DNA of 64,000 nt from Euglena gracilis (Eukaryota). Where the stretch lies: positions 45,053,847 to 45,117,846 of the forward strand of contig CP154954.1 in assembly GCA_039621445.1 (NCBI GenBank), given 5' to 3'. Below are positions 6,301 to 9,300 of this stretch, in pieces; the first letter of the stretch is position 1; each line of letters opens with the position of its first letter. Made by a program: the position numbers and the translations under genes. Below the pieces are notes generated by a model that had not been told where the DNA came from, did no database searches, and was given only the letters and a program-made list of their open reading frames with translations.

Positions 6301-9300
6301 GCAAAGCGCCGAGATTTTTTGGAAAACTGTGTTCAAAAGTGGCCAAAAATGGGGTTTGGGGGGCGTTTGGGGCATTTTTGGGGGGTTTCAGATGCATCAT
6401 TTTTTCAAAACTGTGTTCTGCGGGTCATTTTTGGGGCATTTTTCCGATTTCAGTCCAGCTCGCCCCGGTTCGGGTCCAGCCGGGGTCCAGCCCCCCCCGG
6501 GGGGGGGGGGGGGCGGGCTAGCCAGCCCAAATTTCTAGCCAGCCCAAATTTCTAGCCCTAGCCCAGCAACCCCCCCCGGGGTCCTTAAAGAGATGTATGA
6601 GGGGAACACCTTTTGGATTGTCCCCCAAAAATCCCAAGGCAGGCGCTTATTTTGGGGGTGAATCTAGTTTTTGGAATTTGCTGAAATTCGGCAGGGGGTT
6701 AATTGGGGGGGGATGCCTTTCTGTCCTATGCATTTTGATTTGCTATTTCTCAAAGTTCTGGTTCTCACAAAAGGCCACCAGAAGGAAGCCACCACGTACC
6801 TCCCTTTGACCACCCACCAACCCCCCCCACCCAAGAAACTGTCAGGGCCCCCGCCGCCGGCCAACCTGTCAGGGTCAAATGTCGTGTGGGACACAGTGGA
6901 GACCCGGCTGTTGGAATTCAAGCGGGGCTTGGAACCATCAAAGTGCTGCAGCCCCCATCACCCCATCACCCATCACCCTCTCTGCCGCTGCCCGAACCCA
7001 GCCCCTCCCCCGAAGACAGCCCGGAGCCCAGCCCCGAACCGTCCCCCGAGCCCAGCCCAGAGCCCTCCCCCCAGCCCAGCCCCGAACCTTCCCCGCAGCC
7101 CAGCCCCCTGCCCTCCCCCCAGCCCAGCCCCGCCCCCTCACCACAGCCAGGCACCTATGCCGACCGCAGCCGACCGCAGCCGACCGCAGCCAACCGCGGC
7201 CGACCGCGGGTTTCAGGACTGTCATAGGTGGGGTGCCGACCGCAGCCGACCGCAGCCGACCGCAGCCAACTGCAGCCGACCGCGCAACTTTTTTCCAATT
7301 GATGTCAATTTTTCAGTGAGAATGAGGAATTAGGCTCATTTTTATCCCAGATGTTGAGATTTTTCTGGCTCATCTGGCTCATGTTGTCACTTTTGGCCAC
7401 TTTTGGCCACTTTTGGCCATTTTTGGCCATTTTTGGTCGCTTTTGTCCCCTTTCGGCCCATTTGCCACCATAATTCACCCATTTTGACCTATTTTGACCA
7501 ATTTTGGCCATTTTTTTGCCCACTGCTTGTAATTTTGGGCCATTTTGTCCTGCCCTTGGGCCATTTTGGGCCATTTAGGGCCATTTTTGACCATTTAAAG
7601 CCATTTTCGACCATTTCTTTTGTTATTTTTGCCCATTTTTTTGGTCTCTTTTTGGTCCAATTTGACCATTTTGAGCATTTTGCGCCAGTTTGTTGCCAAA
7701 AGTGAACAAAAGCTGCTAAAGTGACCCAAATCGGCCAAAAGCAGGGTCATTTTGGGCCATTTTTGGGCATTTTTTTGTTATTTTTGCCTGCTTTTGGAAC
7801 TTTTGGCCATTTTAAAAAAAAAAAAATGTAAAAAAAAACCATGTTTTTGTTGATTTTTGTGCCTGGTTTGCCACTTTTAGGCCATCTTTAGGTCACGTTT
7901 GACTGCTCTTGATGTCAAAAGCAACAAAAAGACGTTTTAAAGTGGCCTGAAAGTGGCCAGAAGTGGGTAAAAATGGCCAAAAGCAGAGAAAAGTGGTCAA
8001 AAGTGGGTTAAAGAGTGGTCAAAAGAGGTCAAAGCAAAGCAAAAGCTGGCCAAAAGCAGCCAAAACACAGCAAAAAGTGGGCAAAAGCAACAAAAGTGAC
8101 CAAAAGAAAGCAAAAGGCAGGAAATAATGGGCAAAGGCAGCAAAAATCGACCAACAGTCGGCAACAGTGGCCAAAAGCAGTCCAAAAGCATGAAAAAATG
8201 GCCAAGAGCAGCGAAAAGTGGCCAAAAGTCGGCAACAGTGGATTGTGTGATTGTGATATATGCTCATTTTTTGTTGGCCTGCCCCCCCACCTACAGCCAA
8301 CTACTTTGCCGACCGCTGCCGACCGCAGCCGACCGCAGCCGACCGCAGCCGACCGCAACCGACCGCGGCCGACCGCAGCCGACCGCGGGCTAAAATTTGG
8401 AATCTGTCATAGGTGCTTGACCACAGCCCAGCCCATCCGCCAGCCCTGAGCCCTCCCCTGAACAAGCTTCCATCTTTTTTTTTTGCACACACATCTTTTT
8501 TTCTTACACACAGACATATGCATACCAAAGACAGCCCCTTGTCTGACGACCCCCCCCCCCAGTCGGAGGACAGAGATACCTGGGGCGTTGGGCAAACGAG
8601 CGGAGATTTGGCAGGCTCCTGGGTCTGCCAACCAAATGTTCACAAATTGACTTCATCCTTGTTTTTTTGTACATATATTCATTTGGCAGCTGCCTTCTAT
8701 TTGCCCCCCCCCCGGGGGGAGGGGCCAAGAGAAGGCACAGGGGGGGGAGTGTGTGGGGGACCCAGGCCCAACTTTGCCAACCTTTCGGTCCGCTTCGTCC
8801 AGGAACCACCCCCTTTCAGAGCAACCGTAGCAGATGCGGGGAGGATGTGGTGTTATTCAATGGAGCAAGGTTAGGGTTAGGACCGTCGTGTCGAGAATTG
8901 CCCAGTTCTAGGAAAAAAGTTTAGACCGGAAGTTAGGTCCCTGTTTGGGCAGGTTTTTAGGGCTTCTGTCAGAATTTCTTACCAAAATTTGACCTAAATT
9001 CTGCCTAACTCCGTCTGAAACAGGTCCTGACATCTCCCTAAATTCCTGAAAATCCTCCGGGAATCCAGTCAGAACCCCAACACTATCCCGAACCATAACC
9101 CCAACTTTCCCCCGAGGTGGGACCCGGGGTCACCATACGACCCCCCCATGCCTTCTGTGCCTGGGGGGGGGGGGAAGAAGCTGCCAGTTGTTCATGGCTG
9201 GATACGACACACCGCAGTTTGTGTCTCAAAGAGAAGGCGACTATGGTGAGGAATTTTGAAGCCAACAGGGATCCCAAACTTCCCGGAAAAGATTGGCGCC

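Follow-up and report, generated by a model that had tools for sequence, protein, structure and literature searches.

The segment at positions 7148-8419 of the window (the whole 64,000-nucleotide stretch of Euglena gracilis DNA analysed here) is a genuine transposon insertion, having terminal inverted repeats (TIRs) and a perfect 8-bp target site duplication (TSD), and its use as an intron is possible. The initial annotation had proposed that this hAT-like element is itself a nonconventional intron inside coding sequence. The locus is silent in the RNA data and the proposed intron has TTG as its 3' motif; therefore, the element is probably a transposon in DNA that is not expressed, which could be non-genic, a pseudogene or a gene with very weak expression, and not a demonstrated working intron.

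The anatomy of the element, all of it given on the + strand, was read directly from the sequence, the scans and the predicted fold, which together confirm the TIR element with its TSD, arrays and fold-back interior. The 8-mer ACCACAGC is identical (8/8) in the left (7140-7147) and right (8420-8427) copies of the TSD. The left TIR, CAGGCACCTATG (7148-7159), starts with CAG, and the right TIR, CATAGGTGCTTG (8408-8419), ends in TTG rather than CTG; the two are complementary at 11/12 bases, with one mismatch, and pair with each other in an RNA fold of 7130-8440, in the MFE structure (-467.7 kcal/mol) as well as in the centroid. Next to the left TIR, the motif and repeat scans found a first subterminal array of five GCCGACCGCA units (7159-7208), followed by a second, internal copy of the right-end motif, CTGTCATAGGTG (7219-7230), which closes a mini-unit running from 7148 to ~7234 and has 2 matches in the window vs 0.23 expected. 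A second array of five GCCGACCGCA units (7235-7284) is oriented like the first, and a third one, with eight units (7.9 copies, 92% matches), lies near the right end (8308-8387), direct with respect to the other two. Thus, subterminal arrays are present near both ends, as had been noted; they are direct and not inverted, all three being on the + strand. A probe of two GCCGACCGCA units had all of its 15 window matches within the element, with a shuffle expectation of 0.02. Between the arrays, T-rich 10-mer arrays of the TTTTGGCCAC type (7388-7660; inverted-repeat and repeat scans) form the left arm of the fold-back interior, and A-rich arrays of the AAAGTGGCCA type (7939-8241; repeat scans and RNA fold), which complement them, form the right arm. 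The inverted-pair search returned 56 pairs, having 74 nt and 74% in the longest arms. The GC content of the element is 0.47, vs 0.574 in the 6001-7000 bin, and its ORFs are short and repeat-derived only; the right-end ORF had no candidate in the protein database. Self comparison also revealed an internal segment (8278-8307) resembling the left flank, TSD and TIR (7129-7158), with 86% over 80 nt between 7129-7207 and 8278-8356. A loose end at 8287 indicates that this segment is carried by other copies.

The abundance of the family was seen directly in the depth of DNA words. The four bins between 7204 and 8271 have depths of 1.34, 0.90, 0.55 and 0.72 million, vs 372 in the bin 6670-6936, 3,680 in the bin 8539-8805 and ~120-400 in most other unique bins. 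With 0.5-1.3 million inside the element vs ~100-400 in most unique neighbouring bins, the further copies foreseen by the initial annotation do exist, and the element is a member of a highly repeated family. The bins at the edges have only 56 nt and 148 nt inside the element; corrected for this, their depths of 231,792 and 629,305 correspond to ~1.1 million, in agreement with a drop in depth at the TIRs. A metagenome scan with the 27-nt array pattern gave five loci on GC-rich contigs lacking the TIR core and the 10-mer motif, and these were judged unrelated.

Taken alone, the 12-mer TIR is unremarkable (3 matches at ≤2 mismatches vs 5.37 expected). The combination of a 10-nt TIR (≤1 mismatch) with an exact 8-bp flanking repeat has seven matches in the window outside microsatellites and internal arrays, vs 1, 0, 3, 0, 0, 0, 0 and 0 (mean 0.5) in eight dinucleotide shuffles, which replaced a masked/offset control swamped by TA/TG microsatellites. 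All seven elements with an exact duplication begin with CA and finish with TG, and four begin with CAGG. With this CA...TG lead, exact 9- or 10-bp repeats had no matches and 8-bp repeats had 10, including three that correspond to a 98-bp tandem repeat. In one other family, with copies at 11651-12482, 24429-24881 and 52631-53158, the alignment reaches the TIR ends and each of the three copies has a different duplication. Thus, CAG... termini combined with an 8-bp duplication are supported as the common pattern among the mobile elements in the window, the present element being one of at least seven of the CA...TG type with exact duplications. The segment at 58358-58543, with a 7-bp repeat, was dropped as an element because the repeat extends into a longer direct repeat. 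An origin other than transposition, in which the 8-nt repeat would come from double-strand-break repair or the segment would be a fragment of a fold-back satellite whose repeats arose by chance, is highly improbable. For the gapC intron, which has eight-nucleotide repeats, break repair was proposed in the available text of Milanowski et al. 2016 (PMC4770533), and the resemblance of the left flank plus TIR to the internal segment is odd for a simple insertion. However, the duplication directly abuts the TIRs, the boundaries of the high-copy family appear near the TIRs, several unrelated families in the window share the 8-bp rule with a different duplication for each copy, and the shuffles yield on average half of one such structure.

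Judging from the sequence, "hAT-like" appears to be the best available label for this transposon. The 8-bp TSD characteristic of hAT elements is present (ACCACAGC twice). The hAT terminal consensus is YARNG and the target consensus is nTnnnnAn; the element end CAGGC, within a TIR of 12 bp, agrees with the former at 4/5 positions, the fifth being C, so the two consensuses are matched in part by CAGGC and ACCACAGC. The element is also multi-copy and non-coding, with TIRs and a duplication, similarly to MITE/Foldback-type elements. At 1272 bp, it exceeds the typical MITE length. Assignment to another superfamily with 8-bp duplications (Merlin, P or Mutator-like) instead of hAT is quite improbable, even with the partial consensus matches and with a Pfam search of 20 window ORFs that found no transposase, of hAT or otherwise. 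Short TIRs and CAGGG-type ends, which would resemble Ac/Ds-type ends, argue against it. For E. gracilis, the available text of PMC8101967 describes two Merlin families making 8-bp duplications, which favors the alternative; however, Merlin TIRs begin with GG in every family described there and measure 23 bp or more, and the element starts with CA, as do 7/7 of the elements with an exact duplication found here (four of them with CAGG).

The flanks of the hAT-like element look coding in one frame. Upstream, the ORFs, repeats and codons delimit a Ser/Pro-repeat tract on the + strand (6955-7147) with a period of 12/24 nt and CCN as every second codon in frame 1; between 7018 and 7146, alternate codons are CCN in 21/21 cases, 6 of the 21 differing from CCC, with variation at the third position only. 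The Ser/Pro reading extends over 13 codons past the element and, in the downstream + strand segment (8428-8543), translation continues as Ser/Pro to ~8465, then as a short open frame to a stop at 8541-8543. With 1280 nt taken out, ...SPAPSPQ (ending at 7146) is followed in register by the reading from 8427, and a single ACCACAGC leaves the (x-Pro)n register unbroken across the insertion site, a pattern that supports the probable status of the ACCACAGC pair as a true duplication. The in-frame resumption claimed for the Ser/Pro linker thus stands as to the register after the 1280-nt removal; however, it is weaker evidence than it seemed because all three + frames are open upstream (ORFs 6668-7333, 6739-7227 and 6810-7319). 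Open-frame lengths after subtracting each element plus 8 nt were compared for nine elements and are uninformative because several frames are open in their GC-rich flanks. Pfam searches of the 20 window ORFs found no domain in the flanks of the element, with a low-complexity match only, below threshold; in the window, the sub-threshold matches were FG-GAP (17.6 and 21.1 kb), TPR (60.7 kb) and a low-complexity PARP match. Scans for Rfam families and tRNAs were blank. The FG-GAP exon beside another element, compared with longer proteins, gave 88 candidates and none at E ≤ 0.001. For the frame-1 flank ORF, a profile-free search against 1.84 billion representatives gave 281 matches at E ≤ 0.001; among the 150 of these 281 that were listed, the top stretches are mostly Ser/Pro repeat (query residues ~60-136) and no close homologue was present (best 51% identity), so these matches say nothing about coding status.

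The RNA data come from three raw-read runs with the same species label, of which ~5-6% each was used (12.9, 8.3 and 12.9 million records). In the left-flank bin 6670-6936, the RNA depth is 0 in X21, 0.13 on one strand in X22 and 0.27 on one strand in X24; in the bin 8539-8805 it is <1 per strand, and in the bins 8806-9072 and 9607-9873 it is 0 in all three runs at this sampling of ~5-6% of each. No joint spanning 7145-8424 is among the 15 joints listed (there were 355 further joints). The RNA reads over the element carry mostly letters of other copies, with non-window letters in X21 in 19/19 reads at 8155, 5/5 at 7296, 5/5 at 7886 and 8/9 at 8358. The claim that the element lies inside an expressed exon and is spliced is thus not supported, with a flank depth of 0-0.27 in ~34 million reads and no joint in its favor among the 15 listed; in the data available, at ~5-6% sampling, the locus is transcriptionally silent in the three runs. 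Because only ~5-6% of each run was sampled, under unstated conditions, a weakly or conditionally expressed gene may still be present. Nonsense-mediated decay has been suggested in Euglena in the available text of PMC12501133, and an unspliced, frame-shifted transcript could be lost through it.

The code of euglenid nonconventional introns has been defined experimentally as 5'-N3CDG-/-CH'GN5-6|R, where D is non-C and H' is non-G (Nomura et al. 2025, PMC12501133, available text). Under this code, the predicted removal (N3, element and N5) would cover 1280 nt on the + strand, 7145-8424. On the donor side (junction 7144|7145), N3 is AGC (7145-7147) and CAG follows at 7148-7150 with the 3-nt spacing of the code; on the acceptor side, N5 is ACCAC (8420-8424) followed by A at 8425 or, with N6, by G at 8426, giving the spacer and the purine. 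The end-joining pairing beside the motifs is provided by 7148-7159 with 8408-8419 (MFE and centroid). The CTG that had been placed at -8 to -6 of the intron is not there: the letters at 8417-8419 are TTG, outside C-H'-G, and pair with CAG through a G-U wobble. The element would thus fit the code in all but one feature, TTG violating the required C. In the available text of PMC12501133, every tested single substitution within CAG or CTG abolished splicing. In the same text, 38.8% of the annotated nonconventional introns of E. agilis are outside the strict code, so TTG need not block splicing. The claim that splicing takes out exactly one TSD copy holds as arithmetic under the code (3 + 5 = 8), and such excision was not observed here.

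An element inside a coding exon that is expressed under other conditions, with 7145-8424 spliced out and the Ser/Pro protein unchanged as a recent intron gain by transposition, is an unlikely alternative. It is favored by the layout of AGC, CAG, 12-bp stem, ACCAC and purine A at 8425, by the codon-like flanks with the frame kept once 1280 nt are removed, and by two precedents in the available texts: the gapC intron of E. agilis, a strain-specific recent gain with eight-nucleotide direct repeats at its junctions (PMC4770533), and the origin from MITEs proposed since 2013 (PMC3935182). However, the unique flanks have no RNA depth in the sampled reads, the RNA over the element derives mostly from other copies and none of the 15 joints listed (with 355 more) supports the splicing; the TTG stands against the required C-H'-G, and each single substitution tested in CAG or CTG abolished splicing (PMC12501133, available text); the upstream sequence is open in three frames; and the flanks have no Pfam domain nor an informative homologue among the 150 of 281 matches listed.

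In the preferred reading of a transposon in unexpressed DNA, the element is a copy of a highly repeated, probably non-autonomous DNA transposon with 12-bp TIRs, subterminal 10-mer arrays and a fold-back interior, and was inserted into the Ser/Pro-repeat tract by an 8-bp staggered cut at ACCACAGC. Its CA...TG termini and duplication length fit a hAT-like element that would be mobilised in trans by a transposase encoded elsewhere. The near-code layout at the locus results from the CAG start of the element together with the 8-bp duplication that it made; the intron machinery, acting on it, would excise the element along with a single copy of the duplication and so give back the sequence as it was before the insertion. 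The structure of the element, the abundance of its family, the class of elements with 8-bp duplications and the lack of RNA at the sampled depth are observed directly, whereas the superfamily, the date of the insertion and any splicing are inferred.

The origin and removal of euglenid nonconventional introns is a question standing since the 1990s. The proposal of 2013 that they derive from MITEs (PMC3935182) was taken up again in 2024-2025 (PMC11282704, PMC12501133); the main texts searched, as far as available, do not link them to a particular transposon family, superfamily or duplication length, and the supplementary E. agilis datasets S7 and S8 may hold repeat-length distributions. Here it is tentatively suggested, with a chance somewhat short of even, that these introns as a class are insertions of hAT-like non-autonomous transposons with CAG...CTG ends that make 8-bp duplications. 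If so, a single copy of the duplication would be split into the 3-nt and 5-nt spacers of the code, placing both junctions between duplication positions 5 and 6; excision at the mRNA level would be scarless, and any such insertion would be neutral from the start where the region is transcribed. Three published observations would also be explained: that the junctions are pyrimidine|purine at either end of the intron, that 84% of introns have "slidable" direct repeats and that the gapC intron, a recent gain, has eight-nucleotide repeats. In this scheme, the element at 7148-8419 would be a young member of the class, still spliceable via the G-U wobble or just disabled. The idea that 3 + 5 makes one 8-bp duplication agrees with what is seen in the window's other elements and in the gapC intron. 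Several multi-copy families in the window have CAG...CTG ends, 8-bp duplications and the geometry of the published 3-nt/5-nt code, and make the intron-origin hypothesis testable genome-wide; the locus at 7148-8419 is itself more ordinary, a transposon copy whose expression was not seen in the three sampled runs.

Similarly to hAT non-autonomous elements and MITEs of the Ac/Ds type, the element has an 8-bp TSD, short TIRs starting with CAG and subterminal short repeats, and is non-coding and high-copy. Unlike hAT non-autonomous elements, its subterminal arrays are direct, the fifth terminal base and the target consensus do not fit, and 10-mer arrays make up its long fold-back interior, which is closer to Foldback-type elements. 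With the Merlin elements of Euglena gracilis, as given in the available text of PMC8101967, it shares 8-bp duplications in a euglenid genome; however, those start with GG and have TIRs of at least 23 bp, in contrast to CAG and 12 bp here. Like euglenid nonconventional introns (Nomura et al. 2025; Milanowski et al. [quoted passage not shown] Introner elements and transposon-derived introns (Micromonas, Aureococcus, dinoflagellates, Fritillaria; PMC11282704) are also TIR/TSD transposons whose insertion geometry permits splicing, the duplication providing junction sequence. However, introners depend on the spliceosome, which uses GT-AG or variant sites to remove them, whereas the element would need the separate euglenid machinery, which measures 3 and 5 nt from the CAG/CTG helix.

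The element at 7148-8419 on the + strand is a real non-autonomous transposon of an abundant family, and it is probably hAT-like. It is 1272 bp long and is bounded by two copies of ACCACAGC, at 7140-7147 and 8420-8427. The terminal inverted repeats (TIRs), of 12 bases each, are CAGGCACCTATG on the left (7148-7159) and CATAGGTGCTTG on the right (8408-8419), being reverse-complementary at 11 of 12 positions. Sequence reading thus bears out the anatomy proposed in the initial annotation (TIRs, a perfect 8-bp target-site duplication, subterminal arrays and a fold-back interior), and its observation is confirmed with two corrections, concerning the orientation of the arrays and the 3' motif. 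The GCCGACCGCA arrays (7159-7208, 7235-7284 and 8308-8387) do lie near both ends; a two-unit probe had 15 matches in the window against 0.02 expected, all of them within the element and on the + strand, so the arrays are direct and not inverted, the usual orientation of subterminal repeats. The interior is a fold-back, in which 10-mers of the TTTTGGCCAC type fill the left part and are complementary to those of the right part. The RNA fold of the element (MFE -467.7 kcal/mol) pairs 7148-7159 with 8408-8419 in both the MFE and the centroid structures, in which both duplications are single-stranded. The right-end motif CTGTCATAGGTG recurs once inside the element (7219-7230), which gives the stretch from 7148 to ~7234 the look of a mini-unit built on the same plan. 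The 19 nt to the left of the element, duplication included, together with the TIR (7129-7158) also resemble an internal segment (8278-8307) before the third array, with 17/19 identical bases and one gap in the flank part, and a DNA loose end at 8287 places this segment in other copies as well. The likeness could be fortuitous in such C-rich sequence, or stem from a target preference or from a composite origin out of two mini-units.

The other genomic copies expected by the initial annotation are evident from DNA-run contigs placed on 4000-11999. Word depth (summed DNA contig depth), which is not a copy number and is read only as "highly repeated", was 1.34, 0.90, 0.55 and 0.72 million across the four bins spanning 7204-8271 of the element, compared with 372 at 6670-6936, 3,680 at 8539-8805 and, for the majority of the other unique bins, ~120-400. 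The values of the edge bins, 231,792 and 629,305, correspond to ~1.1 million each after scaling by the lengths within the element (56 nt and 148 nt), as a fall-off at 7148 and 8419 would give. At 10 or more element positions (e.g., 7296, 7454, 7886 and 8155), nearly all DNA depth carries a non-window letter, so this copy differs from the rest of its family by changes of its own.

The 12-mer TIR alone is unremarkable (3 matches at ≤2 mismatches vs. 5.37 expected), unlike its conjunction with the duplication, which is unusual. A scan of the window for every 10-nt inverted pair with ≤1 mismatch, 40-6000 bp apart and with an exact flanking direct repeat, leaving out a TA microsatellite and the element's own arrays, gave seven cases with an 8-bp repeat: 6134-6599, 7148-8419, 11651-12482, 20395-21047, 24429-24881, 29044-29552 and 44155-48586, the last of which is AT-rich and may be due to chance. 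All seven start with CA and end with TG, and the same scan on eight dinucleotide shuffles gave 1, 0, 3, 0, 0, 0, 0 and 0 hits. When the TIR requirement was relaxed and a CA...TG lead imposed, there were 10 hits with exact 8-bp repeats (three being a 98-bp tandem repeat) and none with exact 9- or 10-bp repeats; two further elements, 25782-26289 and 52631-53158, have 7/8 duplications. By alignment, the copies at 11651-12482, 24429-24881 and 52631-53158 form one MITE family with CAGGGATAGATGGGAAGCCCTT... ends; alignability is lost precisely where the TIRs end, and each copy has a duplication of its own (GCTCCAGG, CCCTGCAC and AGCCGGCC/AGCCAGCC, respectively). CAG-ended elements with 8-bp duplications have clearly been mobile in this genome. 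The elements at 29044-29552 and 25782-26289 have CAGGG...CCCTG/CTCTG-type ends, with duplications GTCCGAGG (8/8) and TTGGAGAC/TTGAAGAC (7/8). A second TIR element, only 540 bp upstream of 7148-8419, is 6134-6599, with ends CATACATCTCTCTAAGG and CCTTAAAGAGATGTATG (16/17 complementary), a perfect 8-bp duplication AGGGGAAC and a DNA word depth of ~1.1 million; having CAT...ATG ends, it falls outside the CAG/CTG code of nonconventional introns. The element at 20395-21047 (CAGACCTCTGTTTAGTGTGTATC ends, duplication GTCCCAGT) lies directly upstream of an exon-like stretch that has a weak FG-GAP match (21054-21203) and terminates at a GT donor, beyond which comes a (TG)n run. If this element and 8 nt are excised, an open frame of 24 codons upstream of it stays in phase; alternatively, a conventional acceptor could be supplied by a C-rich tract and CAG at ~21108.

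Regarding the flanks of 7148-8419, the in-frame resumption reported earlier holds to the extent that, once ACCACAGC is reduced to one copy, an unbroken (x-Pro)n reading runs from the upstream tract into the downstream sequence (...SPAPSPQ to 7146, resuming at 8427); however, all three + frames are open across the upstream tract. In 7018-7146, alternate codons of this frame are CCN (21/21), six of them not CCC, with differences confined to the third base, which hints at protein-level constraint, past or present. Pfam returned nothing on the flanks but a sub-threshold low-complexity match, and a search of 1.84 billion representatives gave 281 hits at E ≤ 0.001, mainly Ser/Pro-repeat matches; among the 150 listed, the best stretches were mostly within query residues ~60-136. 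Before the RNA data, the flanks were given about an even chance of being a real exon. Another + strand tract of Ser/Pro repeats (9419-9709) is 77-89% identical to parts of 7021-7148 and likewise has almost no RNA depth; it could represent either a minisatellite or a paralogous exon. Two direct copies of CTGTCAGGG, separated by an 18-nt GC-rich spacer, lie at 6838-6876, shortly before the Ser/Pro tract that the element interrupts.

The initial annotation had proposed that the element is a nonconventional intron gained by hAT transposition and removed as 7145-8424. In three RNA runs labelled as the same species (X21, X22 and X24), of which 12.9, 8.3 and 12.9 million records were read (~5-6% of each), no joint spanning 7145-8424 was found among the 15 joints listed (a further 355 lay beyond this listing), and the locus 7148-8419 showed no sign of transcription in these samples. 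RNA depth in the unique left bin (6670-6936) was 0 in X21 and, on one strand, 0.13 in X22 and 0.27 in X24; it was <1 per strand at 8539-8805 and 0 in all three samples at 8806-9072 and 9607-9873. Such low depth is possibly compatible with a weak or conditional gene, or with decay of an unspliced transcript, which would be frame-shifted, 1280 not being divisible by 3, and on read-through would meet a stop at 7225-7227. RNA reads over the element are present, mostly with other copies' letters; in X21 these account for 19/19 reads at 8155, 5/5 at 7296, 5/5 at 7886 and 8/9 at 8358. At 8198, 13/15 X21 reads have C, and the DNA depth of this variant is only 155, near single-copy; a large part of the RNA signal thus appears to derive from one other copy, and the element RNA seems to be dominated by a few expressed copies, perhaps just one. 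Reads over the element in X24 (7204-8538) were strongly strand-biased: first-mate depth in the bins of 7471-8004 was ~0.07 on the + strand and 6-7 on the - strand; an A-run at ~7815-7840 could favour one-strand capture. Long C-runs, G-runs and C(n)G(n) palindromes occur at 4519-4539, 6480-6517 and elsewhere in the window, where many RNA reads stop in poly-C/poly-G loose ends, producing spurious joints from 4539 to 6490-6499.

The published splicing code, established by knock-ins, is 5'-N3CDG-/-CH'GN5-6|R (D, non-C; H', non-G; R, purine), with the exon junction before R, a spacer of strictly 3 nt at the 5' side and 5 (to 6) nt at the 3' side, and pairing beside the motifs (Nomura et al. 2025, PMC12501133). 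The element resembles it in its N3 (AGC), CAG, 12-bp stem, N5 (ACCAC) and purine at 8425, but the CTG placed at -8 to -6 by the initial annotation is TTG, leaving one defining feature of the code absent. Every tested single substitution within CAG or CTG disrupted splicing, while 38.8% of annotated E. agilis nonconventional introns lie outside the strict code (PMC12501133). As a working intron in coding sequence, the element is a possible but unlikely candidate, to which the data lend no support.

For elements with CAG...CTG ends and an 8-bp duplication, 3 + 5 = 8, so the code would excise the element plus exactly one duplication copy; the removal of one copy proposed for 7148-8419 by the initial annotation is correct as arithmetic under the code, and none of the 15 listed joints shows it. 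Both junctions would fall between duplication positions 5 and 6, in agreement with the "pyrimidine|purine on both ends" of a 2024 review (PMC11282704), and position 6 would be the first exon base, where the code wants a purine. Among nine elements in the window, eight have a purine at position 6 and seven a pyrimidine at position 3, CC-N-AG at positions 3-7 being common to four; in this small sample, the pattern could reflect target preference or selection. A MITE origin of nonconventional introns has been proposed since 2013 (PMC3935182), and no paper found in literature searches, supplements aside, names a superfamily or an 8-bp duplication for them. Milanowski et al. 2016 (PMC4770533) described a strain-specific nonconventional intron of recent gain that bears eight-nucleotide direct repeats, and explained it by break repair. 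The Merlin elements of E. gracilis also have 8-bp duplications, but their ends start with GG (PMC8101967).
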